The position numbers and the translations under genes are program-made. A model generated the notes under the pieces. It did not search any database. It saw only the letters and a list, made by a program, of their open reading frames with translations, and had not been told where the DNA came from. Positions 20,120 to 37,660 of a stretch of 64,000 bases of DNA are shown one piece after another; the first letter of the stretch is position 1, and each line of letters opens with the position of its first letter. Source of the stretch: Planctomycetota bacterium (GTDB lineage Bacteria; Planctomycetota; MHYJ01; JACQXL01); NCBI GenBank assembly GCA_038059695.1, contig JBBTIZ010000023.1, positions 13,427-77,426 on the forward strand. Direction: 5' to 3'.

Positions 20120-20167
20120 AGTGGGGCAGGACTGACATCTTTGAGTAACTCGCTTGTGTTCCCCGGC

Positions 20168-21496: not shown

Positions 21497-21581
21497 CTGT
21501 GAATCTCCTTAGTAATTAACAACGGGATTTAACGGATTGAATAGATTAAACAATCAGATAAATCCTGCTTAATCCTGTTGT

Positions 21582-22928: not shown

Positions 22929-22998
22929 ATTCCAAGATTAACCTATGGGAATTGTAAAATCAATAAATATCCGCATAAAATGCAACCACAGATGCACA

Positions 22999-23056
22999 CA
23001 GATATACACAGATAAATGCGAACACGAATGGCACGAATAGAACGAATATCACGAAT
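22999..23056. repeat. Array of short direct repeats (cacagat x3, then NNcgaat x4), one of the CACGAAT-family arrays
   Basis: cacagatgcacacagatatacacagataaatgcgaacacgaatggcacgaatagaacgaatatcacgaat. Related arrays at 25871-25966, 35522-35640 and 52663-52722. Confidence 0.6.
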
Positions 23057-23057
23057 T

Positions 23058-23093
23058 AAATCCCCTCTATTAAGAGGGGTAAGGGGTGTGTTA
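23058..23093. repeat. Hairpin REP-like element aaatcccctctattaagaggggtaaggggtgtgtta (copy 2)
   Basis: Matches 10011-10047. Confidence 0.65.
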
Positions 23094-23146
23094 ATTACAT
23101 TACTTGCCTCTTGACAATAGTACCCTAATTTAGTAGTAAATCAACT

Positions 23147-23707
23147 ATGTCTCGTACCATTCTTATTGTTATCGGTATCCTCTGTGCCGTGATTACCGCC
23201 GCTGGCTCCATTTACCTTCTAACTTATGACCCGGAATACCAGCATAAGGAAGTTCTATCCGTCACAACTTATGTGCTACCCACAGCCAATAAATTAGATG
23301 AATGTTTATTCTCAACCCATGACGAATCTGCCCCGCCTATAACACTGACTGATAATAATAACCCCATTACGCCTTTTATTATCCCGGGCGAAATTACTAT
23401 GGATGAATCTGTTAATGCTATGAATATACAGGAGGCAAAAAATCTGGAAAAACTAGTGTTGGAACGCATAAATAAAATCATGCGTTTGAAAGACAGACAA
23501 GAAGGCGTAAAAGCCAGGGCCGAAATAAGATTTTTCCCTAATCAGAAATTAGTCAACTATCAATTATACATATACAAAGATCTATATAGCGGTAGTTTTT
23601 ATGATATAAAATGCCGGAAAGATAGTAACAAGTGGATTATTATCGATGACGGCAACGGTTCAATAGGATCTTTCCAGATGACTCACTGTTTCCAGGGTCG
23701 TTACTAA
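23147..23707 (+). CDS. Hypothetical membrane-anchored protein
   Basis: N-terminal TM ILIVIGILCAVITAAGSIYLL. No recognised domains. Confidence 0.35.
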   Translation: MSRTILIVIGILCAVITAAGSIYLLTYDPEYQHKEVLSVTTYVLPTANKLDECLFSTHDESAPPITLTDNNNPITPFIIPGEITMDESVNAMNIQEAKNLEKLVLERINKIMRLKDRQEGVKARAEIRFFPNQKLVNYQLYIYKDLYSGSFYDIKCRKDSNKWIIIDDGNGSIGSFQMTHCFQGRY

Positions 23708-23864
23708 TTCAACCGCCTGAAAATAATTTTCTATAAGGAATCCAGGAGACCCGAATGCTGCCCCTGCATTCCTGGCCTCCTTATAAATATTCTCTGCGTA
23801 ATCTGCGTTTATCTGCGTCCAAATACTCTCCGTGCCCTCTGTGTCTCTGTGGTAAAAATGTATT

Positions 23865-23890
23865 GACATTTATGGTATCGCGTGGTAAAA
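23865..23890 (+). promoter_or_regulatory. Sigma70-like promoter TTGACA-17 nt-TAAAAT upstream of or overlapping the arsM-like start
   Basis: ttgacatttatggtatcgcgtggtaaaat. The -10 box abuts the ATG at 23890, so the real start may be the Met at 23899 (leaderless) or transcription may initiate further upstream. Confidence 0.3.
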
Positions 23891-24837
23891 TGGAATCTAT
23901 GAAGAAATCAGACATAAAGAAAATCGTGCGCAAGGGCTATGGCCAAATCGCCACCAAGAGTTCATCCTGTTGCGGACCGGCTGTTTCGAAATGCGGTTGC
24001 CCGCCCTCTGGGCGAGGCCTCGCTGCGGCGGGTGGATGTAATACCAAGGCATCAAGTATATCCCTGAGCAAGGCCATGGGTTATTCGGATAAGGAAATGG
24101 CATCCGTGCCCCAGGAGGCCAATCTCGGACTAGGCTGCGGCAACCCCATTGCCCTGGCGTCCCTGAAGCCGGGCGAAACCGTGCTGGACCTGGGTTCGGG
24201 TCCGGGCCTGGACTGCTTCCTGGCCGCCAATAGGGTCGGCCCAACCGGTAAGGTCATCGGCATAGATATGACCCCGGAGATGATAGCCAAGGCGTCCGCC
24301 CTAAAGGCGAGACCTCGCTTCGGCGGGCGTAATAATACTAAGAAGAAATATACTAATGTCGAATTCCGTTTAGGCGAGATAGAAAAACTGCCTGTCGCGG
24401 ACAATTCGGTTGACGTCATCATTTCCAATTGCGTCATTAACCTCTCGCCGGACAAACCGGCCGTATTCAAAGAGGCGTTCCGGGTCTTAAAGCCGGGCGG
24501 CCGGCTGATGGTCTCGGACGTGGTCACCACCAACCAGTTGCCGGATGCGCTCAAGGAATCCATCGGCGCCTATGTCGGGTGCTTAAGCGGCGCGATAATG
24601 AAGGGCCAGTATCTCGGCACTATCAAGAAGGTCGGATTCAAGGATGTCCGGATTCTGGACGAAGCCAAATTCCCCATCAAGTTCATGCTCAACGACCTGT
24701 CTGCGTGCGACGCACAGGCAGGCCCGACCGCCAAAGCCCTGGCTGACACCATCAACCTGTCCTCAAAATCGCTCAAAGGCATCGGCGATGCGGTTGAAAG
24801 CATCAAGGTCGCGGCGGTTAAACCGGGTAGAAAATAA
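23890..24837 (+). CDS. SAM-dependent methyltransferase, arsenite methyltransferase (ArsM)-like
   Basis: Start at the MESMKK Met. Cys-rich SSSCCGPAVSKCGCP. Motif I VLDLGSGPGLD, then ...VDVIISNCVINL...VLKPGGRLMVSD. Confidence 0.6.
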   Translation: MESMKKSDIKKIVRKGYGQIATKSSSCCGPAVSKCGCPPSGRGLAAAGGCNTKASSISLSKAMGYSDKEMASVPQEANLGLGCGNPIALASLKPGETVLDLGSGPGLDCFLAANRVGPTGKVIGIDMTPEMIAKASALKARPRFGGRNNTKKKYTNVEFRLGEIEKLPVADNSVDVIISNCVINLSPDKPAVFKEAFRVLKPGGRLMVSDVVTTNQLPDALKESIGAYVGCLSGAIMKGQYLGTIKKVGFKDVRILDEAKFPIKFMLNDLSACDAQAGPTAKALADTINLSSKSLKGIGDAVESIKVAAVKPGRK

Positions 24838-24842
24838 AATAA

Positions 24843-24890
24843 GCCCCTCCCCGACATCACATCGGAGAGGGGCTATTTCTTTCTTAGAGT
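24843..24890 (+). terminator. Rho-independent terminator downstream of the arsM-like gene
   Basis: GC-rich hairpin gcccctccccgacatcacatcggagaggggc followed by tatttctttctt. Confidence 0.6.
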
Positions 24891-24940
24891 CAGTTTAAGC
24901 ATAGCGAATTACTGACTATTAGATCCGCCTCTGGCGGATA
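24887..24940. repeat. Direct repeat A (double-hairpin element) flanking the 24.9-26.9 kb cassette
   Basis: agtcagtttaagcatagcgaattactgact hairpin plus ccgcctctggcgg hairpin. About 75% identical to repeat B at 26844-26900 in the same orientation. Confidence 0.6.
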
Positions 24941-25867
24941 CTATATTACATACCCCACCACATACGGATTGAAGGTGACACTCATATTTCCGTTGGCATC
25001 AGTGAACGCATATTGGAACGAGCCAGCGATTATGGGCACAATAACCTGACCGCCGTAGACCTGATTGACATTACGCGCCTCTACGCCGATAGCGTAACAT
25101 TCAGGTTGTGTTGCATCGCGCCTGAGACGGCAATTGAGCCAACCCTGGGGCGGCGGGGCAATGCTCTGCTGCACCAATTCAATCTGCAAGATTAATGCCG
25201 TGGCCTCTGGCGGAATACTCGGATTCGGAGCCGAGGGCATCCAATCTTGGTTGCCCATCACCATCAAACTGGTCAACTGTATCCGGGTCGGCAGGAAGGT
25301 GATTCTGCTTCCCCCGCCCGCGCCGGGCGCGAGTTTCTCGGCCGTCACCGCGCCGTTGGCGATTTCGCTCGTTCCCACTGCGTTAGCCGCAATCTCGGAA
25401 GCGCCGACCGAATTGGGCGCCAGTTTGGATGCGGTTATGGCATTATCCGCTATCTTGGCATTAGTCACGGCGCTGGACGCCAGTTTTCCGCTGGTTACAT
25501 TCAGGTCCTTGATATTATCGCTCTCCACCGCATTAACCGCTATCTTGGCTCTGGTAATCGCCCCGTCTTTGATTTCCGAGCTCTCCACTTGCGGCGTAAT
25601 CGGCCTGATAAGCGGCGATGGCGGAACGATTGGCAGAACCAATTTATCCTGGGTAATCGTCCGGTCCGCAATCTTGTCGTTGGTTACGCACAGGTCAGCC
25701 AGTTTATTGGTGGTGACGCACTCCTCCTGCAACTTAGCGCTGTTGACAGCGCCGTCGGCTATCTTATCGGTCGTGACCGCGCTCTTGGCAATCTTGGATG
25801 TCGTGATTGCATAGGTCGCGATGTTTGAGGTCTTTACTTCGTTAGGTTTTAACATATAAATCTCCAA
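24941..25867 (-). CDS. Tandem nonapeptide-repeat protein (x-A-V-T-x-x-K-I/L-A periodicity) with a C-terminal globular domain of about 130 aa; fibre/surface-type
   Basis: Roughly 18 consecutive 9-residue units, e.g. SAVTTDKIADGAVNSAKLQEECVTTNKLADLCVTNDKIADRTITQDKL... The repetition is also visible at the DNA level. C-terminus from RITFLPTRIQ... is non-repetitive. Confidence 0.5.
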   Translation of the reverse strand: MEIYMLKPNEVKTSNIATYAITTSKIAKSAVTTDKIADGAVNSAKLQEECVTTNKLADLCVTNDKIADRTITQDKLVLPIVPPSPLIRPITPQVESSEIKDGAITRAKIAVNAVESDNIKDLNVTSGKLASSAVTNAKIADNAITASKLAPNSVGASEIAANAVGTSEIANGAVTAEKLAPGAGGGSRITFLPTRIQLTSLMVMGNQDWMPSAPNPSIPPEATALILQIELVQQSIAPPPQGWLNCRLRRDATQPECYAIGVEARNVNQVYGGQVIVPIIAGSFQYAFTDANGNMSVTFNPYVVGYVI

Positions 25868-25870
25868 TCT

Positions 25871-25966
25871 TTAACACGAATCACACGAATCCGGCGAATC
25901 GCACGAATAATCCATTAATTCATTCGTGTCATTCGTTCCCATTCGTCCCATTCGTGTTCGTATTTT
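25871..25966. repeat. CACGAAT-family array with palindromic arrangement (4 forward, then about 4 inverted copies)
   Basis: cacgaatcacacgaatccggcgaatcgcacgaat ... attcgtgtcattcgttcccattcgtcccattcgtg, in the intergenic region between the two cassette genes. Confidence 0.6.
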
Positions 25967-26031
25967 GTTTTAATTAAAGGGAAGCGGGGCACGGTTAATT
26001 CCGCACCCCGCATTCCACATTTCCCGTTTGG

Positions 26032-26826
26032 TTACGGTGTTGCCACCTTTATCTCCAGGTATTTCCGGCCGTCTATCAAAATCCAATCGCAATGCGAGAC
26101 CCCGGCCGTGGCAAAAGCCACATAAGCCACGTTCTGCAAAGAGGCAATCAGATTATTGATATGGTCGTTCTCCTGAGTCATGACAGTCGGGTCCCAATCC
26201 GCGCTAATCAGCGTCTTGCCTGACTGCACGATTCGGTTAACCACTGCCGACTTCAGGGCCGTTCTCATATCCGGCATCACCCGGGCCACGTTGATGGGCC
26301 CGCCCAGGCCGACCTGGTCGTCGCCCCTGAGCAGCCGTTCGGTCTTGATATCGCCGGTCAGCCACATGGCCGCTATCGGCGCCATACCTATACCAATCTC
26401 CCGTGAGCCGGTAAAAGGCAGGACGCTCCGGGCCACATGCTGTCCATAGACCTCGGCTGAGGCGTCAATCGCCTCCTTATACCGCTTGCAGGGTTCGCCA
26501 TCCACGGTCTCGAACGCCTGGGCCAGTGAACCGCGGTAGTTCTCATAACCATTGGCGATATTATCCGCCTGCTTGCGGACAATCCGGTTACGGTCCAGAC
26601 CTGAACGGGACACATAAGCCGGATTCATAGTCGGCGCGTATGCCGTGGCCGCCGGCAAAGCCATTTTGGACTTATAATCGGACTCATTGCCGATGGCCTG
26701 TTGCATCTGCTGATAGGTCAGGTCAGCGTTATTCTTGGTCCCGCGCTTCCAGCGCTCCACCTGGACCTCCCCGGCCTCTGCCAAATCCAGCAACACGGCC
26801 AGTTTTACCTCACTGATTGTTCCCAT
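26032..26826 (-). CDS. Hypothetical protein (264 aa), no recognisable domain; first gene of the cassette
   Basis: Long ORF with a balanced composition. No motif I can assign. Confidence 0.45.
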   Translation of the reverse strand: MGTISEVKLAVLLDLAEAGEVQVERWKRGTKNNADLTYQQMQQAIGNESDYKSKMALPAATAYAPTMNPAYVSRSGLDRNRIVRKQADNIANGYENYRGSLAQAFETVDGEPCKRYKEAIDASAEVYGQHVARSVLPFTGSREIGIGMAPIAAMWLTGDIKTERLLRGDDQVGLGGPINVARVMPDMRTALKSAVVNRIVQSGKTLISADWDPTVMTQENDHINNLIASLQNVAYVAFATAGVSHCDWILIDGRKYLEIKVATP

Positions 26827-26843
26827 AATCTAATCTCCTTTTC

Positions 26844-26900
26844 TTACTGACCGTTTGAGCAAAGCAAATTACGGTCAGTTAGACCCGCCTCTGGCGGGTT
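26844..26900. repeat. Direct repeat B (double-hairpin element)
   Basis: ctgaccgtttgagcaaagcaaattacggtcag hairpin plus cccgcctctggcggg hairpin. See repeat A. Confidence 0.6.
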
Positions 26901-26968
26901 ATCGTTTTAGAATCAGCCGGTTGGGCTACCGGTTCACGATAGCCCGAACCCGGCTGAGACAGATGAAG

Positions 26969-27052
26969 TTATTTCTTCACCTTATCGCGAATCACCGTAA
27001 GAACGATTTCCAAGACCGTCCTGATGATGCGCCTCCAAAAACTCTTTTTCAT
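26969..27052 (-). CDS. Candidate small ORF (27 aa), basic/hydrophobic peptide MKKSFWRRIIRTVLEIVLTVIRDKVKK
   Basis: Strong RBS AGGTGGA 7 nt upstream of the ATG. A stable hairpin (26913-26958, agccggttgggcta/tagcccgaacccggct) lies immediately downstream. Not in the ORF track because it is under 60 aa. Confidence 0.3.
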   Translation of the reverse strand: MKKSFWRRIIRTVLEIVLTVIRDKVKK

Positions 27053-27330
27053 AGTTGTTTCCACCTATTTTGTTATTTAAATGACTAACTGCCAAACAGG
27101 CATCAAGCAGATACTCATAGAAGACAAGCCGGGGCCGGGGCAAGCGGCATGACTCACCTGCGCCCGATCATGCGCCCTGGTCTTGTGTCCTGCTAATAAC
27201 ATACCGAATAGTAAGGAACTCTTCAAAGAGGGACGAACGATTACAGATTGTTTAAGATTGGCTGTTGCAACCGATTGTATTCTAAGGAGTTATGCGAGAC
27301 GGTCAAAATGAACGAAAATGAAATATGAAA

Positions 27331-28473
27331 TTATTCATCCGTAGATGGATGCGTATTGAGAGATTCCTTCAATCTATTAATATTCGGGCGGGCTTTACCA
27401 GAAGATGTTGGAGCAACGATTTCAATATCCTTTAAAAATATCGGGCATAGATAACCCTTTTTACTATCAAGACGTCCGATTTCTGGTAATCCGGCTGATA
27501 CTAATACCTTGTTTATTTTGCTGATTGCCCCGCTGATACGGTTTTTATAGTTTTCCGGCTCAAGCTTATAATCCTCCATTTTCCAGCCACACGCCTTGAC
27601 AATATCTTCTAAAGAAATATAAGTATTCTTGGTCTTGCCGGAAACCTTATCAAGTATTCTTAATAGGATTTTATGCGTCTGGTTTATTAATCCTATTAGC
27701 TGTTTATCCTTGTATTGGAATACGCTTTTGGTCAGGTTTATTTTTGATTTCTTTGCCTTGCTGAACGAAATGATTTTCTCCTTCTGGCTGATTTTAGTAA
27801 GGATATCCTGGCTGATAACCCAATTCTTATCGCCGAAAGCGTCTGCAAAATTGACATAATGAATATTCCTATCCTCTAATATCCGGCGAGTATTTTGGCT
27901 AATCTTATCAAAGAAAGGCATCAGGACAATCCCTGCCTGGTATCTCGCTATTTGGGATGGTATGCTCAAAAGCAGTGTCCCGGCTGTCTTGGGATTACTG
28001 CACAGGGCCAGAATAATCGCGGTTGACTTTCCCCTGACATTCAAAACGCCGATAAAATAAAGCCGGTCGTCAAGTTTGTCATAGTTACCAGCCAGATTAT
28101 TATCATTACGGATTAGTTCTACGAATGCCCTAATATTAAAGGAATACCTGCATAGGTCGTTTTTATCAATAGAAACCATCCCTTCAGATGGATGTATCAT
28201 ACAAAATGCCTCAAGGTTTCCGTCCTGTTTTTTGACGGATAATGTGCAACCGTGTGGACAGCGGGGGGATTTAATATTTTCGATTACACCATCGGAATGG
28301 TTAATATAACTTAAAATATTCTTCTTGGTCAAATCGGCACAGTTTGATGGAGAAATGGCGAGCAGTTCTTTTTTGCTAAATAAGGAATTAGGGCTTTTCT
28401 CTATCTGCTTTAAAAGGAACTTTATCATTTTCTTTAATGCCGATATCTTCCAGGTACTTATTGATAATTTCAT
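27331..28473 (-). CDS. Hypothetical protein (380 aa) in the Type III R-M island, last gene of the co-oriented operon
   Basis: AT-rich codon usage matching the island. Cys/His cluster SPRCPHGCTL...AFCMIHP. Degenerate P-loop-like GVLNVRGKST. Real start possibly the internal Met MIKFLL. Confidence 0.45.
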   Translation of the reverse strand: MKLSISTWKISALKKMIKFLLKQIEKSPNSLFSKKELLAISPSNCADLTKKNILSYINHSDGVIENIKSPRCPHGCTLSVKKQDGNLEAFCMIHPSEGMVSIDKNDLCRYSFNIRAFVELIRNDNNLAGNYDKLDDRLYFIGVLNVRGKSTAIILALCSNPKTAGTLLLSIPSQIARYQAGIVLMPFFDKISQNTRRILEDRNIHYVNFADAFGDKNWVISQDILTKISQKEKIISFSKAKKSKINLTKSVFQYKDKQLIGLINQTHKILLRILDKVSGKTKNTYISLEDIVKACGWKMEDYKLEPENYKNRISGAISKINKVLVSAGLPEIGRLDSKKGYLCPIFLKDIEIVAPTSSGKARPNINRLKESLNTHPSTDE

Positions 28474-29545
28474 TATATTTTTTGCTTCCCAAGTCAGTAC
28501 TGCTGGGCGGGGTTATTTCAAAACTCACTTCTATTGCTTTTCCATTAACCTGTAATATAAATAGAAATTTAGCCGAAGTCAATTCGCCTGAATCTATCCC
28601 TAATCCGGCAATGTCATTATTAAATGTCTGGTTAATATCAGTTGAATCTATGCGAATAGTCGGTTTTGTAGAACCATTTAGGACCATAGTTACGGCAGTT
28701 AATTTAACCGACCGTATTGTCTCATTGACGGGGAAACTAAAATCATCTTCTTGAAGTGGTTTTAGGATATAGGTGTCATCTCTATCAGGGCGCATCGCTT
28801 GACTTTTGTCACAGATAATAATATCGGCAAAAACATCAATATATTTTTCTCTGTCTTTTCGAAGTGAAGTATGTACGGAAAAAGATGTTTTCCCGTCGTA
28901 TTGCAGAATATCCTCATAAGCGGGTCTAAAAATAATGGTTTCTGTATTTACCTCTTTGTCTTCATCTTTCAAGACCAATTGATGCTTTTTATTTTTCCCG
29001 CGTATTACTGCAATAATCAATTTGCCATTTTCCTCATAATGCCTGATAATACAATCCTTCCCTTGACGCCTGTCTTTAAACCATGCTTTAATCTGCGCCT
29101 TGAACTGTTCCATTTTTCCTGGCGTTATTGTAAAGCTGGTACATTCCATTTTATGTCGGCTCAATTTATTGCCTGAGCCATAAAGCAGGTAATAATCGCT
29201 GAGATGGTTATAGGCCGGTTTACTCTTCAGGAATATACCGAGTATCAATTGGTGTTGGTTTTCTTTCCCCGTGGACGCAATATGATATTTCTGGATTACA
29301 TCCGGGATAAAACCAGTCATCGTTTTAGCAATATCATAAAGACGTGCTATTTCTTCTTCAATCGTATCTTTCAGGTCGGTATCCGTGAGATTATCTAAAT
29401 ATGCTATAACCGTGCTAAAAGGCGCCGTTGATTCTTTTAAGTTAAGCGTAATATGATACTTCCTAAAATATTCCTCTAGAATGTCTGGAGTTGATATTGC
29501 CGCATCCAAAAACTCAGTTACCTTGGTAGAACGAAACTTACCCAT
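28388..29545 (-). CDS. Hypothetical protein (385 aa) immediately downstream of res, same strand
   Basis: No recognisable motif. Tightly packed after res (res ends 29565). Confidence 0.45.
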   Translation of the reverse strand: MGKFRSTKVTEFLDAAISTPDILEEYFRKYHITLNLKESTAPFSTVIAYLDNLTDTDLKDTIEEEIARLYDIAKTMTGFIPDVIQKYHIASTGKENQHQLILGIFLKSKPAYNHLSDYYLLYGSGNKLSRHKMECTSFTITPGKMEQFKAQIKAWFKDRRQGKDCIIRHYEENGKLIIAVIRGKNKKHQLVLKDEDKEVNTETIIFRPAYEDILQYDGKTSFSVHTSLRKDREKYIDVFADIIICDKSQAMRPDRDDTYILKPLQEDDFSFPVNETIRSVKLTAVTMVLNGSTKPTIRIDSTDINQTFNNDIAGLGIDSGELTSAKFLFILQVNGKAIEVSFEITPPSSTDLGSKKYNEIINKYLEDIGIKENDKVPFKADREKP

Positions 29546-29564
29546 TTTAGGCCCCCTTTATAAC

Positions 29565-31946
29565 TCAACCTAATCTTAATTCTTCCCAATCGCTCCAGTC
29601 ATTCCGCAAGCATTTTTCCCAATCGTATTGTGCTTTTTGGTTGATTTTCCAAATGCCATTTACCGGAACGACTATTCCGCCGAAGAGTTTCTTACCCTTT
29701 TTAGTCTGTTCTTTGATATACTCCTGCAATCGTTCTGATTTTGCCTTGGTATAACTGCTACCCCCCCAGTCGCCCATATCCTTTGTCTCAAAAACGCCTA
29801 TTCTTCCATCCGCAAACCGGACTAAATAATCAGGATAGAATGTATGGACCACTCCGGTTGGATATTCATATTTAATGCCGAAATAATCCTTCTTGTTTTC
29901 GCCGTTCTTCCACCACCAAACGATGTTTTTAGCATTCGTTTTATCCTCTAAAAACCTCTCGAATTCCCTTTCGGGATTAGTGCGGTCAATATTCAAATAG
30001 CAATTATCATAGACATAGTTTTTAACCTTGAGCAATTCGTCGGTATGCGCGTTATAAAAACTCTCGTTTGGTATCTCGAAATCATAAATCTGTTCGCTCT
30101 CCTCAACACGCTTGGCAATCTCTTTCTCCCGAACAGTTTTATACTCCTCAACCGCTTTTAACAGAATACGCTCAAAGATATCCCTATTGCCGTTATGGAC
30201 AAAGATTTTCTGTATCATCATCGCTTCTTCATCCCAATCCTTAGCGCCCAGATGTCGCATAAACCAGACGTAAATCGTATTCTTGACCTTCGGCACCGAC
30301 CGCTTAATATTTTTGAATGAGCCAAGATGCTCCTTAATAATCTGCACAAATACCGCATCCAGATCGTTACCGGCAATATTCAAACTGGCTTTCTGGGCAG
30401 AATCTATTTCGCCCTCTAATTCGTCAAAAGTCTTGCCATCAATCTTTGCATCTCGGATAATTTCCTGCTGGTATTTCTTTAAATCAACAACAATACCTTT
30501 TTTCTCAAGCAGTTTCTTATTCTGGTCAAAGAATTCCCTTTGTTTAATGCCAAACTCCGCGCAGGCAACCTTCTCAAACACCGGGTCAAAACTCGAGGTG
30601 ATATCTCCGTAATCAGCCCGCGATTTATAGTAGGAGCTAAGCTTTATATCCTTATAACAATCTTTAAGCGTCCCCTTTAGATGCTTGATGATATTCGGAT
30701 TATATTCTTCCTTTTTGACAATAATGCTCTGGACGTTGGTGTATATATATCCGGTATTCAGGGCTTCGCTTGGGTAATGCCTTAATTCCGGCATCCGCAG
30801 TATCCGGCCCACGGTCTGGATTTCAAAGGTCTCGCTGTGTGATTCCCGGAATTTGACCAGAATATGCGCCCGGGGACAATCCCATCCCGTATCAACTACT
30901 TGCTTGAATACAAAAAATTCTATTATATTATCCGGTTCGGCAATCGATTCTATTTCTTCTATTGCTGGATAGCCATGAATTCGAATTGCTAATTTCTTAT
31001 TTGCTTCAGCAATACCTTTCTTCGCCAAAAATTCTTCAACAGCTTTTTTCTTGTCATCTCCGGCGTCGGCATTCGGTATCTGTATTAAAGCCAGCGGATT
31101 AATATTTGCCCCCTCCGCCTCAAATAATCTCTTTAATTCCAACCTCTTCCGATATGCTGCCTCTAAAACTACTTCCTGCGAATCGGTTTCATTATTGGCA
31201 ATTTTATCTATCTTCTCATTAATGATTATTTCTTTCTTTATTATACCTGCATCAATGACATCTTTCGGCTCTACACAAACATACCCGGCAATCCCCCGCT
31301 TTTCATCTCTGCGGTCAGGAATAAGTTTTGGCGTGGCGCTCATTTCCAGAATAATATCGGCGTTTATCTCGTCCCGCAATTCGTTGGTTCGTTCAGCCGT
31401 GGCGCCGATATGGCTTTCGTCTATAATCATTATTACCTTCCGTTGTTCCCGTGTTCTGGTAAGGACATCCCTGAAATTTATCTTTTCTCCGTCCTTCATC
31501 AGGATGTTTTTCCAATCGCCGGTTTCCTTATCTTTACTCCGTAATTTCTCCCAGTTAACCACTACAACCTCGTTACGGACAATCCGTTCCCTGCCGCCGG
31601 AAAATTCATCCTCAACCAAAGACACCCTCGGCGCTCCGCCGTAAATCTTTTCTAAAGCGCGTTTACTCTGAAGATGTAATTCGCCCTTACCAATACTCAC
31701 CCAAAGAAAACAAATATCCTCATCTGGTAATTCTTTAATAATCTCCTCAATAAACTTAGCTGTCATCAGGGTCTTGCCGCTTCCGGTCGGGGCCTGGAAA
31801 ACACAGACCTTTTTCATTCCCTCGTTAGCCAGCAGTTTCTTAACGGCGGTAAGCAATTGCTCAATGGCTGTTTCCTGATACGGCTTAAGGTCAATATTCA
31901 TAAATATCCTCGTATATATCCAGAATCTTCTGCGGAATCGGCTCAA
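29565..31946 (-). CDS. res: Type III restriction enzyme Res subunit (SF2 helicase plus C-terminal PD-(D/E)xK nuclease)
   Basis: Walker A QAPTGSGKT, DEAH-like IIDESH, helicase motif VI region, C-terminal nuclease motif PDYLVRF...GVFETKD. Probable start at the MNIDLK Met. Confidence 0.8.
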   Translation of the reverse strand: MSRFRRRFWIYTRIFMNIDLKPYQETAIEQLLTAVKKLLANEGMKKVCVFQAPTGSGKTLMTAKFIEEIIKELPDEDICFLWVSIGKGELHLQSKRALEKIYGGAPRVSLVEDEFSGGRERIVRNEVVVVNWEKLRSKDKETGDWKNILMKDGEKINFRDVLTRTREQRKVIMIIDESHIGATAERTNELRDEINADIILEMSATPKLIPDRRDEKRGIAGYVCVEPKDVIDAGIIKKEIIINEKIDKIANNETDSQEVVLEAAYRKRLELKRLFEAEGANINPLALIQIPNADAGDDKKKAVEEFLAKKGIAEANKKLAIRIHGYPAIEEIESIAEPDNIIEFFVFKQVVDTGWDCPRAHILVKFRESHSETFEIQTVGRILRMPELRHYPSEALNTGYIYTNVQSIIVKKEEYNPNIIKHLKGTLKDCYKDIKLSSYYKSRADYGDITSSFDPVFEKVACAEFGIKQREFFDQNKKLLEKKGIVVDLKKYQQEIIRDAKIDGKTFDELEGEIDSAQKASLNIAGNDLDAVFVQIIKEHLGSFKNIKRSVPKVKNTIYVWFMRHLGAKDWDEEAMMIQKIFVHNGNRDIFERILLKAVEEYKTVREKEIAKRVEESEQIYDFEIPNESFYNAHTDELLKVKNYVYDNCYLNIDRTNPEREFERFLEDKTNAKNIVWWWKNGENKKDYFGIKYEYPTGVVHTFYPDYLVRFADGRIGVFETKDMGDWGGSSYTKAKSERLQEYIKEQTKKGKKLFGGIVVPVNGIWKINQKAQYDWEKCLRNDWSDWEELRLG

Positions 31947-33405
31947 GTGTTACACCTTTCCAATCATGAAAATCATTTTTATCCAGCCCGAACGGGTCAA
32001 GTTCAAAGCAATAGAGAGTTTTCTCGCCTGTCATTTTATCTAATTCTTTCTTGAGTGATTTTAATTCAGTCCGGTCAGGCGAATAATATACTGCCATAAT
32101 ACGCTCACCCTGCTCAAAGATACGGTAATCGTCCGTCTTCTTCTTCTCCTCAAAAATACCCTCTCTGAGGCAAAGCATCTCAGTGCATTCCTTGGTAATA
32201 CGGATTTTCAGGGTGTCCTTGCTAAAAGTCCGCTTCACAAAGGCGGTCTTGAAATATTTAAGTTCATCACTATGATCAGAAAGGCGAGGGTAGCCACTCA
32301 TGCATTTTTTTATTCGTGGATAGCATACTTCTTCGGCAATTTCATTTTCATTATTTGTACACAATATAAATTTTCTATTTCCCCCATCTTTTCTATTAAG
32401 TTCTAAAACCGCATGACCAGTTGTCCCTGAACCAGCGAAAAAATCTAAAACTATCGCTTCTTTATTATCATCTATACATATTTGTAATGTATCAAAAACC
32501 GCGTATAGCGATTTGGGATAATCAAAAGACCTTGATTTTCCAAGTATTTTTTGTAGCAATATTGTTCCATGAGATGAAGCATCATATTTTGGATCAGCCC
32601 ATACCGTTTTCGGCTTTCTGCCACCCTTTATCCTATCTTTTGCGAAAACTGTATACTTGCCATTATTCTCTTTAATAACAATTTCAGTTTCAGCTTTCTC
32701 CGTAAAACTCACCTTACCCCACCGCCAAACCCTTTTTCCATCATGTGAATCAATCGGTAAAATTTTAACCAAATCTTTATTCTTTTCTTCTTCTACTGAA
32801 ACTCGTTTTGTTTTTTTATTGTAATATATCGGATAGAAAAGATTAGGCCTTTTATCGGGAGTTGAATTAGACCCTGTTCTTTTTAGGGGTAGTAATCGGT
32901 AAAAAGATATTTCGTCTTCTAATGGAAAACCCTCGACCTGTTCTTCTGTTAGCTTTAATTTATTAGTTTTAGTAACCTGGGTATTTAGTCCATAGAAAAG
33001 AGCGTATTCGTGAGAGGTTGCAAAATATTTATCGTCGCTTCTTCCTCGAGGGTTGTGCATGATAGTAACCACCCCAAGTTTATTACCCTCCCCAAAAATT
33101 TCGTTCATCAATAAATTGAGATTTCCAATTTCATAGTCATCAATAGTTACAATTATTATTCCTTCGTCTTTTAATAAATTTTTAGCAAGGCGCAAGCGTT
33201 TGCTCATAAACGAAAGCCATTTGCTGTGCTTATAGGTGTCATCTTTTTCTACATACTGATTGTTGTATTTCCAGCTCTTATTACCCGTATTGTATGGTGG
33301 GTCAATATAGATAACATCAATCTTGCCTTGATGGGTATAGTTCAAAACAGATAAGGCGTGGTAATTATCGCCTTCTATACAGGATGTTAACTGGTTTAGA
33401 GTCAC
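31891..33405 (-). CDS. mod: Type III DNA methyltransferase Mod (beta-class N6A/N4C MTase), main reading frame
   Basis: Motif IV DPPY (YIDPPYNTG) precedes motif I FDFFAGSGTTGHAV, which is the beta-class order. This frame begins at a GTG immediately after a C9 homopolymer. Confidence 0.8.
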   Translation of the reverse strand: MTLNQLTSCIEGDNYHALSVLNYTHQGKIDVIYIDPPYNTGNKSWKYNNQYVEKDDTYKHSKWLSFMSKRLRLAKNLLKDEGIIIVTIDDYEIGNLNLLMNEIFGEGNKLGVVTIMHNPRGRSDDKYFATSHEYALFYGLNTQVTKTNKLKLTEEQVEGFPLEDEISFYRLLPLKRTGSNSTPDKRPNLFYPIYYNKKTKRVSVEEEKNKDLVKILPIDSHDGKRVWRWGKVSFTEKAETEIVIKENNGKYTVFAKDRIKGGRKPKTVWADPKYDASSHGTILLQKILGKSRSFDYPKSLYAVFDTLQICIDDNKEAIVLDFFAGSGTTGHAVLELNRKDGGNRKFILCTNNENEIAEEVCYPRIKKCMSGYPRLSDHSDELKYFKTAFVKRTFSKDTLKIRITKECTEMLCLREGIFEEKKKTDDYRIFEQGERIMAVYYSPDRTELKSLKKELDKMTGEKTLYCFELDPFGLDKNDFHDWKGVTLEPIPQKILDIYEDIYEY

Positions 33406-33596
33406 TGGGGGGGGGCGGTAATGGCTTTGTTCTTTACTTCCTTAAGAATCGGCAGGGCGTTTTCTGAATCTTTCTCAAACTGTTCCTTGGTATGTTCCTC
33501 ATCCCAGACCAAGCCGTATTTTTTGCGGCTTTCTAATTTCTCTATTCTCTTAATTAATTCTTTCTTATCCCAATCCTGATAGGTATTCTTCGGCAT
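33402..33596 (-). CDS. mod: N-terminal fragment of Mod (64 aa), separated from the main mod frame by a homopolymer frameshift
   Basis: Peptide ...YGLVWDEEH... resembles Type III Mod N-termini. Ends ...AITAPPQ-stop, reading through the C9 tract. One extra C fuses it in-frame to MTLNQL... Confidence 0.6.
   Translation of the reverse strand: MPKNTYQDWDKKELIKRIEKLESRKKYGLVWDEEHTKEQFEKDSENALPILKEVKNKAITAPPQ
33407..33415. repeat. Homopolymeric G9 (C9 on the coding strand) tract at the mod frameshift site
   Basis: gtcactgggggggggcggtaatgg. C10 (or C7) would give one continuous mod ORF of about 568 aa. Confidence 0.85.
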
Positions 33597-33764
33597 AAAT
33601 ATTAATAATAAACATCTTTTTCAGGAAAGCAACAAATAACCTGCGTTTTTAAGTAGGGTATAGGATTAATACACACCAGCACACCATATCATAAACACTA
33701 TATGATGGCGCGCTATGGGGTAGGTATGGTTATTGTTTACACCATACGGCCAAGCCCTGTATTA

Positions 33765-33874
33765 TACATCAGCCGCGCATAATCTGTATATCAGCCGTGC
33801 GCATGTTATATATCAGCCGGTGACAAGTTATATATCAGCCGTGCGTATAGTGTATATCAGCCGTGGGCGTAGTG
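33765..33874. repeat. Five tandem 22-bp direct repeats (consensus TATCAGCCGTGCGyaTaGTgTA) in the mod-operon upstream region
   Basis: tacatcagccgcgcataatctgta / tatcagccgtgcgcatgttata / tatcagccggtgacaagttata / tatcagccgtgcgtatagtgta / tatcagccgtgggcgtagtgta. Confidence 0.8.
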
Positions 33875-34066
33875 TACACGATTATTGCGCTTACTCTATA
33901 TAAGCTAAGCGGTTACTGTATATGGCTCATGCCCTCACCACCAGTCAGGGAGTCTTGAGGGGTACTACCCCCCACCCTCCCCCCTCCCCCTGTTGGGAAA
34001 GTGAAAAGATGAGAGTGGAAAGATGAAAGCTTGAGAAAATCAGGAAACACGGATTGCGCAGGTGTT

Positions 34067-35518
34067 TTAAGGCTTCTTCCAACAGACCCTTAGTTCTCGC
34101 GCTGCCTTGACCTCATCCAGCCGGCCGACGGGGGTAGTTGTTGGCGCGGACTTGACCACATCGGGTGTGGTTTCGGCCTCTTTGGCGATAGCAATCATGA
34201 CCTTGATGAATTCGTCCAGGGTCTCTTTGCTTTCGGTCTCGGTCGGTTCTATCATCAATGCCTCGTGAACGATGAGCGGGAAATAAATCGTGGGTGGATG
34301 GTATCCGTAGTCCAACAGCCGCTTGGCTATGTCCAAAGTCCTGACCCCGAATTTCTTTAACTGAATCGTCGCGTCCAGGACACATTCGTGCATGCAGTGC
34401 CGGTCATACTGGAGATGGTAGTGTTGCTTGAGTTGGGCCATGACGTAGTTGGCATTTAAGACGGCCATCTGGCTGGCCTTTTTCAGGCCGGCTGGCCCCA
34501 TCATCCGGATATAGACATAGGCCCGAATCAGGACCGCGATGTTGCCGAAGAATCCCTTGATTTGGCCGATAGAATCGGGACGGTCATAGTCCAGCGAGTA
34601 TTCGTCGTTGTTCTTGACGACAATCGGCACGGGCAGGTAAGGCGTGAGTTTGGCTGTGACCGCAATCGGGCCCGCACCCGGACCGCCGCAGCCGTGCGGC
34701 GTGGAAAAGGTCTTGTGGAGATTAAAGTGCAGGACATCGGCGCCGGCCAGGGCCGGAGTGGTGATGCCCATAATGGAATTGAAATTGGCGCCGTCCATAT
34801 AAATAAATCCGCCGCTGTCGTGGACTATCTTGCAAATCTCCACAATGTGCTCGTCAAACAGGCCGAGCGTATTGGGGATAGTCAGCATCAGGCAGGCCAC
34901 TTCATTGTTCATCTTGGCCTTCAGGTCCGGGATATCGACATTGCCGTGCGCATCGGACTTGACCTCGACGGCATGGAATCCGCACAGGGCGCCAGAAGCC
35001 GGGTTGGTGCCGTGCGCCGAATCCGGGATAAGGACCTTGGTTCTCTTATCATTATGTTTCTTGAAATACTGATGGATGACTTTTAGGCCGGTGTATTCGC
35101 CGTGCGCGCCGGCCGCCGGGGTCAGCGACACGCCGTCAAAACCGGAGATTTCCTTCAAGAACTCGCCCAGTTCATACATTATCCGCAGGATGCCCTGAAC
35201 CGTTGAGGCCGGCTGGTAGGGATGGAGCTGGGCAAAGCCGGTCAGGCCGCACAGGGTCTCGTTGACCTTGGGATTGTATTTCATGGTGCAGGAACCGAGC
35301 GGATAGAAACCGGTATCAACGCCGAAGTTCTTGCGGGCCAGATTGGTATAATGGCGCACCAGGGTGAGTTCGTCCACCTCAGGCAGGTCTGCCAGCGTCG
35401 GCCTTAAGGCGGCGGACGGCAATAATTTATTTATATCCTGGGCCGGCACGTCCAGGGCCGGCAAGGCGCAGGCGCTCCGGCCCGGACGGGATTCTTCAAA
35501 GATAAGCTTGTCGTTCAT
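34067..35518 (-). CDS. gcvPB: Glycine dehydrogenase (decarboxylating) subunit 2
   Basis: Typical GcvPB sequence throughout, e.g. [16 protein letters not shown]. Confidence 0.85.
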
Positions 35519-35521
35519 AAA

Positions 35522-35640
35522 ACTAATTCTAACACGAATGTCACGAATAGAGCGAATGGCACGAATAAATTCGTGTGATTAGTCGCATTCGCTTCGCGGT
35601 CTCTTCGAGTTCGTGTGATTCGTGTTCTATACTTAATCCT
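35522..35640. repeat. CACGAAT-family array with palindromic arrangement between gcvPA and gcvPB
   Basis: cacgaatgtcacgaatagagcgaatggcacgaataaattcgtgtgatt...gagttcgtgtgattcgtgtt. Confidence 0.6.
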
Positions 35641-37003
35641 TAATTGTGTTTACGAGTTTATCAATCTCCTCTTTCGTGTTCATTTCGGTCACACACAGGA
35701 GCATGGCGTTCTTTAGTTTGGGATAAAATCTCTTTAAGGCCAGGCCGCCGATGATATTGCTTTTCAATAGTTTCTTGTTAATCTGCTCCGGATTCCTGGG
35801 ACATTCGATAACGAATTCGTTGAAATACGGGCCGCTGAACAGGAGTTTGAAGCCCGGGATTTTGGATATCTGGTCAGCCGCGCAGTGCGCCTTTTGTAGA
35901 TTGAGTTCAGCCACCTGCTTCAGGCCGGTCTTGCCCACGGCGGACAGGTAGATGGCCGTCCGGATGGCGCAGAGGGCCTGGTTGGAACAGATGTTGGACG
36001 TGGCCTTTTCCCGCCTGATATGCTGTTCCCGGGTGGACAGGGTCAGGACGAACCCGCGCCGGCCTTTGGCGTCTGTGGTCTCGCCGACTATCCGGCCGGG
36101 CATCTTGCGGATATGGGCCATCTTGGTAGCCATAAAACCCAGATGCGGGCCGCCGAATGACATCCGGTTGCCTAACGGCTGGGCATCGCCCACAACTATG
36201 TCAACTCCGTAATCGCCGGGCGGCTTGAGCAATCCTAAGGAAATCGGATTGACCACCGCTATCAAAACAACCCCCTTATATTCCCCCTTTGTTAAGGGGG
36301 ATTGAGGGGGTTGTCTCCGGATGATTTCAGCAATTTTATCCGCCGGTTCGATGATGCCGAAGAAATTGGGCGATTGATAAGCCACGCAGGCCGTATTGCT
36401 ATCTAATACTTTTTCTAATGCCTCTACTGAGGTGACGCCATCGGAGAAATCTATTTCTATGATATTGATATCCAAGTCCTCCAGCCAGGCCTTGACCGTA
36501 GCCCGGTATTCCGGATGGATGGTCTTGGAGATAATGACCTTCTTTTTGTTGGTGGTGTGGAGCGCCATGAGGATGGCCTCGGCCAAAGCGGTCGCGCCGT
36601 CATAGAGCGATGCGTTGGACACCTCCATGCCGGTCAGCTGGCACATCATGGTCTGGTATTCAAAAATAGTGGTCAGCGCGCCCTGGCTGGTCTCGGGCTG
36701 GTACGGGGTATAGGCCGTATAGAATTCGCTCCGAGCAGCCAGGTGGTCCACCACGGCCGGGATAAAGTGGTTGTAACAGCCCGCGCCCAGGAAAGACGGG
36801 GTGTTGGCGACATTGGTATTTTTGTCTGCCAGTTCGGCCAGTAGTTTGGTGGCTTCCATCTCGCTTAGCGGGGCCGGCAGGGCCAGGGGTTTAGTCAGAT
36901 GTAATTCTTTGGGGATGCTGGAAAACAGGTCTTCCAGGTTGGCCACATTGGCCGCGGCCAGCATTTCCCGGATGTCAGTATCAGTATGCGGAATATAGGG
37001 CAT
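35633..37003 (-). CDS. gcvPA: Glycine dehydrogenase (decarboxylating) subunit 1
   Basis: Typical GcvPA sequence (ISLGLLKPPGDYGVDIVVGDAQPLG). Contains a short hairpin-encoding insertion near 36271-36320. Confidence 0.85.
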   Translation of the reverse strand: MPYIPHTDTDIREMLAAANVANLEDLFSSIPKELHLTKPLALPAPLSEMEATKLLAELADKNTNVANTPSFLGAGCYNHFIPAVVDHLAARSEFYTAYTPYQPETSQGALTTIFEYQTMMCQLTGMEVSNASLYDGATALAEAILMALHTTNKKKVIISKTIHPEYRATVKAWLEDLDINIIEIDFSDGVTSVEALEKVLDSNTACVAYQSPNFFGIIEPADKIAEIIRRQPPQSPLTKGEYKGVVLIAVVNPISLGLLKPPGDYGVDIVVGDAQPLGNRMSFGGPHLGFMATKMAHIRKMPGRIVGETTDAKGRRGFVLTLSTREQHIRREKATSNICSNQALCAIRTAIYLSAVGKTGLKQVAELNLQKAHCAADQISKIPGFKLLFSGPYFNEFVIECPRNPEQINKKLLKSNIIGGLALKRFYPKLKNAMLLCVTEMNTKEEIDKLVNTIKD

Positions 37004-37040
37004 AGCAGTTAGGTTATTGGGTTATTAGGCCATAAGGTTA

Positions 37041-37427
37041 TCAATGGCTCGCTGATTCCGTTTCACAAAGTTTCTGATATGCCTCTTTGGTCAGGAGATT
37101 CTTGAGTTCCCCGCTGTCCGATAATTTAATCTTAACCAGCCAGCCGGCATTGAAAGAGTCGGTGCTGATCAGGTTAAGGTTGGAGACGACCGGTTCGTTG
37201 ACCTCAATAACCTGGCCGCTCAAAGGGCTGTTGATGTCCACCACGGTTTTGACTGATTCCACCTCGCCCATGGGTTCGGCCTGTTTTACCGCCTGCTTAA
37301 GCTTGGGCAGGTTGATAAAAATCAGGTCGCTCAGCTGCTGAGCGGCGAAATCAGTGATGCCGATTGTAGCCGTCGCGCCGTCCACCTTGGCCCATTCATG
37401 CGTTTGCGAATAATATAACTCTGCCAT
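37041..37427 (-). CDS. gcvH: Glycine cleavage system H protein (canonical, lipoyl-lysine present)
   Basis: Start at the MAELYYSQTHEWAKV Met. Lipoyl motif EVESVKTV. The upstream part of the track ORF is translated repeat sequence. Confidence 0.8.
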   Translation of the reverse strand: MAELYYSQTHEWAKVDGATATIGITDFAAQQLSDLIFINLPKLKQAVKQAEPMGEVESVKTVVDINSPLSGQVIEVNEPVVSNLNLISTDSFNAGWLVKIKLSDSGELKNLLTKEAYQKLCETESASH

Positions 37428-37480
37428 ACACGCGCTACTTTCTATGAAGAACAATAAATCCTTGAAACTTCTGCCACTGA

Positions 37481-37514
37481 GCGCCATAAGGGCGCCATGG
37501 CGCTTCGGCGCCAG
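37481..37514. repeat. 34-nt repeat gcgccataagggcgccatggcgcttcggcgccag (copy 1), contains the palindrome ggcgccatggcgcc
   Basis: Identical 34-mer at 52746-52779. Confidence 0.75.
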
Positions 37515-37557
37515 AAGGCACAAAGACACTAAGAAGAAATTAACTGGTCGTTTTCTT

Positions 37558-37586
37558 CGTGCCTTAGTGTCTTGGTGGCTAAATTT
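37558..37586. repeat. 29-nt repeat cgtgccttagtgtcttggtggctaaattt (copy 1); forms a hairpin with upstream aaggcacaaagacactaag
   Basis: Identical 29-mer at 53366-53394. Confidence 0.75.
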
Positions 37587-37660
37587 TATACCTTCCTGCA
37601 CCTTACATTATGTTATGTTATTAAAAAGGGCAAATAAAATCAGATAAAATACAAATAAGG

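Follow-up and report, generated by a model that had tools for sequence, protein, structure and literature searches.

A multi-copy non-coding module with a phased array of 22-bp, putatively protein-binding repeats at the head of defence islands in a Planctomycetota lineage

Here, we examined a tandem repeat array in a 64-kb stretch of planctomycetal DNA (hereafter, the window), the sequence of which originates from metagenomes of Hainich groundwater well H41 and from a Planctomycetota MAG. In the window, the genes gcvH, gcvPA and gcvPB (37601..34067) are followed by a 470-bp intergenic region that contains the array, and then by an island the first cargo of which is a Type III restriction-modification (R-M) system. 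In the direction of these genes, the locus is organized as follows:

34067..35518, minus strand: gcvPB, a core gene the 3′ end of which precedes the module described below (Pfam and synteny in sister genomes)
33991..34036: gcvPB-proximal end of the module, GTTGGGAAAGTGAAAAGATGAGAGTGGAAAGATGAAAG (multiple alignment)
33968..33990, minus strand: G-rich tract GGGGGAGGGGGGAGGGTGGGGGG, labelled G-quadruplex-capable because it contains four or more G-runs
33959..33971: small GC hairpin GGGGTACTACCCC, overlapping the start of the C/G tract and kept in all copies of the module
33875..33940: three degenerate units in the same 22-bp register, TACACGATTATT.., TATATAAGCTAAGCGG.. and TATATGGCTCATGC..
33765..33874: five well-conserved 22-bp units, each consisting, on the plus strand, of TATATCAGCCG and an 11-nt tail; on the minus strand, that is, in the gene direction, the unit reads CAACATACGCACGGCTGATATA
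33616..33764: mod-proximal conserved flank with in-register degenerate units and the ATTTGTTG motif (multiple and three-species alignments, BLAST edges)
31891..33596, minus strand: Type III mod, the first cargo gene, present as 64-aa and 504-aa open reading frames (ORFs)
29565..31946, minus strand: Type III res, with a ResIII helicase domain (Pfam)
27331..29545, minus strand: two cargo ORFs of 385 aa and 380 aa, with no family match
24941..26826, minus strand: distal conserved pair, encoding a 264-aa all-alpha protein and a 308-aa protein with phage tail-fibre-type repeats

The G-rich strand of the tract is the sense strand of gcvPB. A homopolymer at 33407-33415 (9 G on the plus strand, C9 in the gene direction) divides mod into the two ORFs, and a tract of 7 or 10 C would yield an intact 568-aa Mod. 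The AlphaFold2 model of the 380-aa protein (pLDDT 77) gave weak matches only, to PD-(D/E)xK nucleases, and its C-terminal 135 aa are common to the proteins found at the same position in other islands. The 264-aa protein, the model of which (pLDDT 85) has no structural match in the PDB, is 100% identical at a second locus; the gene is 99.9-100% identical between loci, whereas the adjoining segments are 77% identical. The islands are homologous to one another up to the stop codon of the gene for the 308-aa protein (24942). The block from mod to the gene for the 380-aa protein has a GC content of 39%, compared to 49-50% in the flanks.

Five head-to-tail 22-bp direct repeats had been predicted from the sequence at 33765-33874, and Tandem Repeats Finder, the spacing of the units and a shuffle control all confirm that they are real. 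Tandem Repeats Finder reported period-22 arrays at 33761-33863 (4.7 copies) and 33785-33876 (4.2 copies, score 96); the units start at 33765, 33787, 33809, 33831 and 33853, and a repeat search gave start-to-start spacings of 22, 22, 22, 22 and then 44, with a sixth copy at 33897-33923 that shares 74% identity with the reference copy. The 11-mer TATATCAGCCG, with at most one mismatch, occurs 7 times in the 64-kb window against 1.55 expected, a count reached in none of 100 shuffles, and 5 of the 7 matches are the array itself, in exact 22-bp steps from 33765 to 33853. With the weaker in-register units included, the periodic zone extends over 33699-33940, or approximately 11 units, as also found by autocorrelation, and an autocorrelation scan showed this to be the sole 22-bp-periodic stretch of the window. 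No second or inverted copy of the core or of any other part of the module was found within the 64-kb window. The array is non-coding because 22 is not a multiple of 3, and it lies 169-278 bp upstream of the mod start codon (ATG at 33596, minus strand), in agreement with the predicted distance of about 170-280 bp. The exclusion of CRISPR, made originally on the grounds that the repeats have no spacers, is borne out as well: the units are contiguous with a period of 22, a unit totals 22 bp as opposed to the required 23-50-bp repeats with unique spacers, and the variable 9 nt are point variants of one consensus.

The repeat unit is bipartite, with a 13-nt core, T-R-TATATCAGCCG, that is nearly invariant and a 9-nt linker that carries approximately 1 bit per position. 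In the window array, 2 of the 13 core positions but all 9 linker positions are variable (Fisher p = 2e-4), and, in pairwise comparisons of the units, the linkers differ at 55 of 90 positions (61%). The same holds across seven paralogous copies, in which 4 of 65 core columns vary compared to 22 of 45 linker columns (p = 3e-7). Given that slippage or homogenization would affect the whole unit equally, this contrast points to selection on the core, and, judging from these substitution patterns, we conclude that the 13-nt core is under purifying selection. The core of array type T1, TRTATATCAGCCG, is asymmetric, and every unit is in direct orientation.

Alignment of ten copies shows that the array is part of a conserved non-coding module of approximately 420 bp (window 33616-34036). 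In the direction of the upstream gene, the module consists of hairpins, the G-tract, degenerate and then good units, and a conserved flank of approximately 130 bp that terminates in ..ATTTGTTG..; homology among the paralogous copies ends at approximately 33616-33627, 20-30 nt before the ATG of mod. The small hairpin, which reads GGGGTAnTACCCC in the gene direction, overlaps the G-rich tract. The consensus of this tract in the ten-copy alignment is GGGGGGWGGGGG(G)TAKGGTGGGGGGTA, and no other part of the module is as well conserved across array types T1 to T4. Moreover, the module tract is the only long G/C tract in the window, and, in 252 kb of related loci, long G-tracts are almost confined to modules. 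Other copies contain two or three REP-like or terminator-like hairpins inserted at the gcvPB-proximal end, which are absent in the window copy.

The module is present in multiple copies. BLAST searches detected at least 4 copies with 85-97% identity in one Hainich Planctomycetota MAG, the assignment to the same MAG being based on the origin of two of the contigs (L003 and L135) from GCA_964356845.1 and on the AAB038 locus-tag prefix shared by P0004 and P0009. A scan of the metagenomes from the same Hainich samples yielded additional copies on L096, on L106/L114/L122 and on L112/L120, in contigs with a coverage of 58-66x, equal to that of the window contig. The original prediction called for a genome-wide search for the 22-mer, on the premise that a generic repeat scattered at random would speak against a function; the repeat is indeed found elsewhere in the genome, but its placement is non-random, at junctions between core genes and defence islands. 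The claim that did not survive this search is the association with mod: the same module adjoins unrelated genes at other loci, so that the array is not mod-specific. The repetition of the module also accounts for two contigs (L001 and L003) that end at 33682, a position that could be taken for a strain-specific island boundary and is better explained by 55-nt overlaps in the assembly graph, which arise because the module is repeated. Other contig breaks are located at approximately 33736 (start of L129), approximately 27158 (its end) and 27212 (start of L125).

A pattern scan of reference genomes identified two true homologues of the module in other Planctomycetota MAGs (L082 and L044), both resembling the window copy on both sides of the array. 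The number of units is approximately 8 in L082 and 10-11 in L044, compared to 5 in the Hainich copies; the L044 array is built of 44-bp higher-order repeats, and L082 contains two modules in tandem, flanked by convergent genes. The orientation of the units relative to the G-tract varies, as in the first module of L082 and in L139. The 90 genome matches of the ATCAGCCG core were picked by that same 8-mer in a single scan that included no control pattern, and accordingly, no cross-phylum conclusion is drawn for ATCAGCCG.

In 9 of 10 loci, L044 being the exception, the module lies behind a co-oriented gene and in the same orientation, so that its position and orientation are fixed. The upstream genes are gcvPB, SMC, an ABC-type gene (ABC_tran_2), GGDEF and DUF2007; it is a core gene (gcvPB, SMC, ABC), never an integrase, that adjoins the module on the upstream side. 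On the other side, the defence cargo differs by locus at 6 or more module loci. The window carries the Type III R-M system, the SMC locus (L122/L133) carries MmeI/Eco57I-like methylases and a T5orf172-ResIII protein, and the same SMC locus in another strain (L106/L114) encodes a 220-aa protein, a PIN protein and others. The cargo of L044 is a Type IIG enzyme and that of L096 a Schlafen/AlbA_2 protein, and in L082 there is no cargo beyond the module edge. The start codons of the first cargo genes are located 20-40 nt past the end of the module homology. Cargo is inserted exactly at the distal edge of the module: two contigs of the SMC locus (L114 and L122) are 99.8% identical over 6965 bp, comprising SMC and the module, and unrelated from the exact module edge on. 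In a second subtype of island (L134, L135-137), the G-tract is the same and is followed by approximately 13-16 units with GGAGTATATTC-like cores at exact 22-bp multiples. After the array come a sigma-70 promoter, a LexA-like protein with a MAD1-like HTH and R-M genes, and the islands end in a distal trio that consists of a member of the ~380-aa family, the 264-aa protein and a ~320-aa tail-fibre-like protein. No sequence was found to recur at the distal ends of the cargo, and no integrase, transposase or recombinase family was detected in or beside the islands of the same lineage; a Phage_integrase fragment occurs only in a distant relative (L139).

Comparison with three sister genomes, in which gcvPB is 88-89% identical and synteny is kept on both sides, reveals the same site in the unoccupied state. 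In these genomes, a convergent methyltransferase gene (window 23755-24837) follows gcvPB at a distance of 400-530 bp, and relative to them the window contains 9.26 kb of extra DNA (24,825-34,085). The intergenic region after gcvPB in two of these relatives (L140 and L141) harbours a solo module with the same G-tract and with 13-15 units of exactly 22 bp, GGCGCTACAAAGGTATATTCCA in L140 and CCCCGCTGTGCCATACCGAATA in L141; the L140 module ends in the distal-edge sequence of the Hainich modules. Both solo modules lie between convergent genes, with no downstream gene. In more distant relatives, G-tracts and an array of 13 x 22 bp accompany homologues of the 264/310 gene pair. The exact 22-bp register is thus seen in five array types, T1 to T5, while the sequence of the unit is not conserved among them. 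Given that the G-tract and the period are kept while the unit sequence differs, position and geometry are what is conserved. A search for a motif common to T1-T5 gave only a loose G[AT]TAT[AT]/TATA-like element, which is unconvincing, and the ATAC-N3-ATAC pattern shared by T1 and T4 was judged to be a coincidence.

Promoter-like sequences accompany some of the modules. Those of the second type have an 11/12 match to the sigma-70 consensus, TTGACA-N17-TATATT, between the array and the LexA-like first cargo gene, and, just before the Type IIG gene of L044, a TGGACA-N17-TATTAA sequence is recognizable by eye that a strict promoter scan did not list. The promoter-like matches of the window copy are weak and not above the frequency in shuffled sequences, with the proviso that planctomycetal promoters are poorly known. 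On the plus strand, a promoter-like TTTACA-N18-TATTAT sequence (33736-33765) reads into the array and is partly kept in other copies. The fold scores are z = -2.6 for the minus strand and z = -1.1 for the plus strand; Rfam contained no match for the module, and RNAalifold detected no covariation (term +0.92, with a two-sided change in 1 of 24 pairs).

The reading that we tentatively favour, and to which we assign somewhat less than an even chance, is that the array is a phased binding site for a DNA-binding protein within a boundary or control module that heads defence islands. In general terms, a docking platform for a protein is more likely than a plasmid origin or a mod-specific switch. A sequence-specific protein would bind the 13-bp core once per 22 bp; with 22 bp corresponding to two helical turns, all sites would face the same side of the helix, so that 5 to 11 protomers or dimers could assemble cooperatively into a nucleoprotein array. 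Together with the G-tract, the bound array would then serve both as a boundary and as a control element where the island begins. In this Planctomycetota lineage, such a module would separate a core gene from the leading gene of a defence island acquired by horizontal transfer, insulating the R-M and other toxic cargo from read-through from the core gene. By setting the activity of the island-proximal promoter, the bound array may also determine the expression of the cargo; both the binding to the core and the control or insulation of this promoter are what we infer from sequence patterns. Several points weigh against this proposal: the evidence is comparative throughout, no cognate binder was found, the solo modules of L140 and L141 have no downstream gene to regulate, the promoter of the window copy is weak, and the differing unit sequences would call for several cognate proteins or for a single one that reads a short shared motif. 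The 380-aa protein was considered as the binder, via an OmpR-like winged helix guessed by eye at its C-terminus, but this assignment received no support from Pfam, NCBIfam, PDB or Foldseek, and the pattern of similarity within the family does not track the array type.

The main rival to the boundary or control element is a recombination landing pad, in which the array, as a set of accessory binding sites, and the G-tract form an att-like platform where defence cassettes are inserted and swapped at the distal edge, driven either by a recombinase acting in trans or by recombination induced by the G-quadruplex or by fork stalling. Such a platform is consistent with the contrast between the 9.26-kb island in the window and the solo module in three sister genomes, with the unrelated cargo that begins at the module edge after 99.8% identity (L114/L106 versus L122), and with the different defence genes at 6 or more module loci. 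Furthermore, paralogues within the MAG are 85-97% identical whereas the unit sequences of orthologues differ, a pattern suggestive of gene conversion or copying tied to the movement of the islands, and the identity between loci is 99.9-100% for the 264-aa gene but 77% for the segments beside it. However, no recombinase family is encoded in or beside the islands of the same lineage, neither a second end nor an inverted copy nor a target duplication was found, and the exchange of cargo could be ordinary homologous recombination via the module and the 264/310 pair. We rank this possibility second to the boundary or control reading because of the lack of a linked recombinase and consider it rather unlikely. 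Certain features of the module (22-bp sites, TGTACA at the edge, location behind a conserved gene) bring to mind a Tn7/Mu-type transposon end, a candidate that was rejected given the lack of an inverted second end and of a DDE transposase (tnsA/B/C-like); furthermore, the degenerate units run past the TGT ‘terminus’. Functionless satellite DNA, generated and homogenized by slippage or unequal exchange beside a G-quadruplex fork barrier in a module that hitch-hikes with the islands, would fit the rapid turnover of unit sequences between species (T1 to T5), the degeneracy of the edge units and the 44-bp higher-order repeats of L044, which imply recent amplification; dispersed non-coding satellite families, moreover, exist in a few prokaryotes (PMC6749651). 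Nevertheless, we regard this explanation as improbable: without selection, the contrast in substitutions between core and linker is not expected, the exact 22-bp period recurs in five unrelated unit sequences, position and orientation are kept across species, and the number of units is stable at five in all Hainich copies.

For a role at the RNA level, the array would be transcribed, either as a long 5′ leader or non-coding RNA that starts from the plus-strand promoter-like site or as the 3′ UTR of gcvPB; an RNA-binding protein or a small RNA would recognize the repeated core, and Rho would load at the C-rich tract. Such a role draws on the partly conserved promoter-like site that reads into the array, on the fold score of the minus strand (z = -2.6) and on the C-rich, G-poor tract that follows the array on the plus strand. 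The lack of an Rfam match and of covariation, the score of the plus strand (z = -1.1) and the inconstant orientation of the units relative to the G-tract (first module of L082, L139) all count against it, and we consider such a role quite improbable. Among the explanations raised in the original prediction, a phase-variable repeat in the mod promoter, where the number of units would alter the spacing or strength of the promoter and provide a second switch beside the mod homopolymer, was suggested by the array preceding, at a distance of 169-278 bp, a mod gene that contains a homopolymer and could draw on the variation of unit number between species (5, ~8, 10-11). Within the Hainich set, no copy-number variation was found between strains or copies: four independent assemblies, each from a different sample, have the same consensus sequence of the array, and all 7 of 7 paralogous copies have five good units. 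Furthermore, the same module precedes unrelated genes or none, and the divergence of linkers between units makes slippage inefficient. Tuning of the mod promoter by unit number is accordingly very unlikely. The other suggestion, an iteron-like protein-binding array, is retained as to form, namely the conserved 13-nt core and the 22-bp period, and rejected as to replication, there being no Rep, DnaA box or plasmid. A reading as replication iterons, or as the centromere-like partition site of a plasmid or ICE that has integrated, is suggested by the formal likeness to origins that contain four to seven iterons of 22 bp, such as that of the Chlamydia plasmid (PMC7143637), by the AT-rich stretch at 33597-33700 beside the array, which is the 5′ region of mod, and by the cumulative GC-skew minimum at 33-34 kb. 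However, no Rep is encoded nearby, as judged by searches with Pfam, PHROGs, PADLOC and NCBIfam of all ORFs at 24.9-35.5 kb and of the neighbours of the other copies, and Par or conjugation genes are equally missing from the searched island ORFs and these neighbours. The DnaA box TTATCCACA, allowing at most one mismatch, does not occur at 19717-35178 and is no more frequent than expected by chance in the window as a whole; no similarity to plasmid or phage DNA was found. An origin with one array per replicon is further contradicted by the at least 4 near-identical arrays on contigs of equal coverage in the same MAG, as well as by the solo copies between core genes. A chromosomal oriC was also rejected, despite the skew minimum, given the lack of DnaA boxes and the multiple copies of the module; with genes of mixed orientation in the window, this minimum is local. 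The replicon reading is largely refuted, and we consider it extremely unlikely.

The siting of defence-island hotspots is an open question, and most hotspots are defined by their flanking core genes alone. The hotspot described here has, in addition, a conserved non-coding signature, namely, a G-quadruplex-capable tract followed by a 22-bp-phased array with a selected 13-bp core. This signature is present at several loci per genome, and in occupied and empty states in sister species, which makes the question testable. Whether such modules are dedicated chromosomal landing pads, several per genome behind core genes, that, through a factor acting in trans on the array or through fork stalling at the G-quadruplex or the array, direct the insertion and swapping of whole defence systems to a defined point and supply them with a ready-made control region is a proposition that we consider doubtful. 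The results also call for caution in annotation, since an array that resembles iterons may be one of several copies of a dispersed element and not a regulator of the gene that it adjoins.

Among known systems, the form of the array is closest to that of iterons in a 22-bp register, such as those of RK2, R6K and pPS10, which are spaced at 22 bp. Both are made of head-to-tail direct repeats with a conserved core, in 4-11 copies, and the five units of the window conform to the usual description of iterons, in which direct repeats 17-22 bp long recur approximately every 22 bp; cooperative binding of protein on one face of the helix, as in iterons, is also the likely mode here, as far as the sequence allows one to tell. 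Indeed, the physical logic of a phased core, by analogy, may be the same in iterons, centromere arrays and the end-sites of transposases. Within the PVC group, the origin of the Chlamydia trachomatis plasmid contains four 22-bp repeats (PMC7143637). Unlike iterons, however, the module is chromosomal, with several near-identical copies per genome and without Rep, DnaA boxes or plasmid context, is coupled to a G-rich tract, and has its unit sequence replaced between sister species while the period is kept; apart from the form of the array, it shows none of the features that define an origin.

The integron platform combines attI, with the accessory IntI-binding direct repeats DR1 and DR2, and the Pc promoter. 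Like this platform, the module is a fixed non-coding element with direct repeats upstream of a constant point at which exchangeable, seemingly promoter-less cargo is found. By contrast, the module has no adjacent integrase or recognized attC, its cargo consists of several genes rather than single-ORF cassettes, there are many platforms per genome, and the repeats are far more numerous. If the landing-pad reading is correct, this would be an integron-like system for multi-gene immune islands without a linked integrase. REP/BIME elements are 20-40-bp palindromes in mosaic orientation, presumably bound by architectural proteins and with a presumed influence on termination or supercoiling. They share with the module a dispersed, multi-copy, non-coding nature and a location just after the 3′ ends of genes, often between convergent genes, whereas the units of the module are non-palindromic direct repeats in a strict 22-bp register, accompanied by a G-quadruplex-capable tract and associated with defence islands. 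In Neisseria, the pilE G-quadruplex initiates recombination and acts with a cis sRNA on one expression locus; here, too, a conserved tract capable of forming a G-quadruplex lies in non-coding DNA upstream of a locus that exchanges its content, but pilE has no tandem array, and the G-quadruplex of the module is a prediction. The module belongs to none of these three classes, and a literature search found no description of such a module. Finally, dispersed non-coding satellite families are reported to be rare in prokaryotes, with examples described in Leptospira interrogans and Methanocella conradii (PMC6749651). As in these families, related non-coding tandem repeats are scattered here over the chromosome, whereas no fixed partner motif, constant period across families or link to defence islands has been described for the satellites in that survey (PMC6749651). 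In the light of these comparisons, the array is best viewed as a probable phased protein-binding repeat array.

Read in the direction of the genes, the 22-bp units of the multi-copy module resemble a promoter in their geometry, in that TATACA of one unit stands 18 nt from TACAAT or TATAAT of the next. This spacing gives rise both to the ladder of sigma-70-like matches in a homologous array from another planctomycetote MAG (L044, positions 1771-1976; 8 matches observed against 2.0 expected) and to the single match that the repeat units form in the window (33761-33790, minus strand). The module also coincides with the minimum that the cumulative GC skew has within the window (33000-34000). A replication origin at this minimum was considered and rejected: because gene orientation is mixed and a low-GC island adjoins, we take the skew, examined over 64 kb only, as a local effect.

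The Type III mod gene at the head of the island is interrupted by a homopolymer tract of 9 nt (33407-33415; the gene is on the minus strand, and the tract reads C9 in its direction). An intact Mod of 568 aa is predicted if the tract has 7 or 10 nt. Given that the 9-nt tract breaks the frame, that either of these lengths would restore Mod, and that 9 nt is the consensus state in five independent assemblies, mod is a classic candidate for phase variation, OFF at present in the bulk population.

At its other end, the island is bounded by a pair of genes, for a 264-aa and a 308-aa protein, which is found again at several loci and in distant Planctomycetota. Comparing the island at the gcvPB locus with that at the SMC locus, the two copies of the 264-aa gene share 99.9-100% identity (window 26032-26826 versus L124 1422-2216), whereas the DNA directly upstream of it shows only 77% identity (window 27126-27758 versus L124 701-1332), and the approximately 300 bp between the gene and this segment fail to align. 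Such an abrupt step in identity suggests gene conversion or recent exchange among island copies. The 308-aa protein (24941-25867, minus strand) is made up of tail-fibre-type repeats and matches phrog_892 (E = 5e-36), as well as the PADLOC model PD-Lambda-5_A (E = 1e-9); the GC content of its gene (0.55) exceeds that of the cargo (0.39).

The gap between these two genes, that between gcvPA and gcvPB, and other sites harbor a second dispersed family of intergenic repeats, namely, short arrays of 3-4 copies of the 9-bp unit CACGAATNG or its complement, and BLAST connects these sites with one another and with other contigs.

Arrays of the 9-bp repeat
22987-23014, window
23023-23056, window
25874-25955, window
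35533-35566, window
10366-10504, L137 (type-2 island)
13804-13837, L141 (sister species)

Directly past the distal edge of two other copies of the module, both from Hainich groundwater, lie long tandem arrays with a period of 21 bp (or 42 bp).

Arrays of the 21/42-bp period
1168-1813, L120 (= L112 330-980)
2765-3254, L096

They comprise three distinct sub-arrays of about 10 units each, CCATACATAGCAGTGTATAAC, TCATCCACCAGCCCTGGTCAG and CAGTCATTCGGGAGACCTCCC, and every unit contains a short palindrome. Since the period is divisible by 3 and ORFs run across the arrays, these may encode heptad-repeat proteins.

Wider scans brought up further repeat families. An uncultured MAG of the Lentisphaeraceae, which belong, as do the Planctomycetota, to the PVC superphylum, carries at least 22 intergenic loci (contigs CASEMS01..., L008-L090) with 3-15 units of the 22-bp repeat TGGATCAGCCGCYGAGCCGAGG, which typically have a terminator hairpin on one side and, on the other, a site resembling a promoter, TGCTATACT or TATGCT. 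Dispersed GCTATCAGCCGTTCGGCGAACC arrays occur in several Bacteroidaceae MAGs. Both sets were picked up through the 8-mer ATCAGCCG, itself the scan pattern, so that any kinship with the window array is unproven. The scan of metagenomes brought up two unrelated families: 11-bp arrays, GGATATCAGCC(G), bordered by conserved TTGTACACCGGATATCA..GTCACCCCTTGG, and a dispersed 44-bp element in which the palindrome CGGCGGCTGATATCAGCCGCCG occurs twice.

Unrelated repeat families in metagenomes
L099, L100, L102, L107, L113, L115, L117: 11-bp arrays, Ga0058701 metagenome
L094, L097, L098, L103, L104, L108, L109, L116, L119, L121: 44-bp palindrome element, microbial-mat metagenomes

In the type-2 islands, the leading gene (L134 5436-6011) encodes a LexA-like S24 autopeptidase (TIGR00498, E = 2e-40) and is followed by a gene for an AccI-like endonuclease and one for an Eco57I-type methylase. 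The N-terminal HTH of the LexA-like protein scores 79.4 bits, under the 80-bit cut-off, against the MAD1 model for the methylation-associated defence system.
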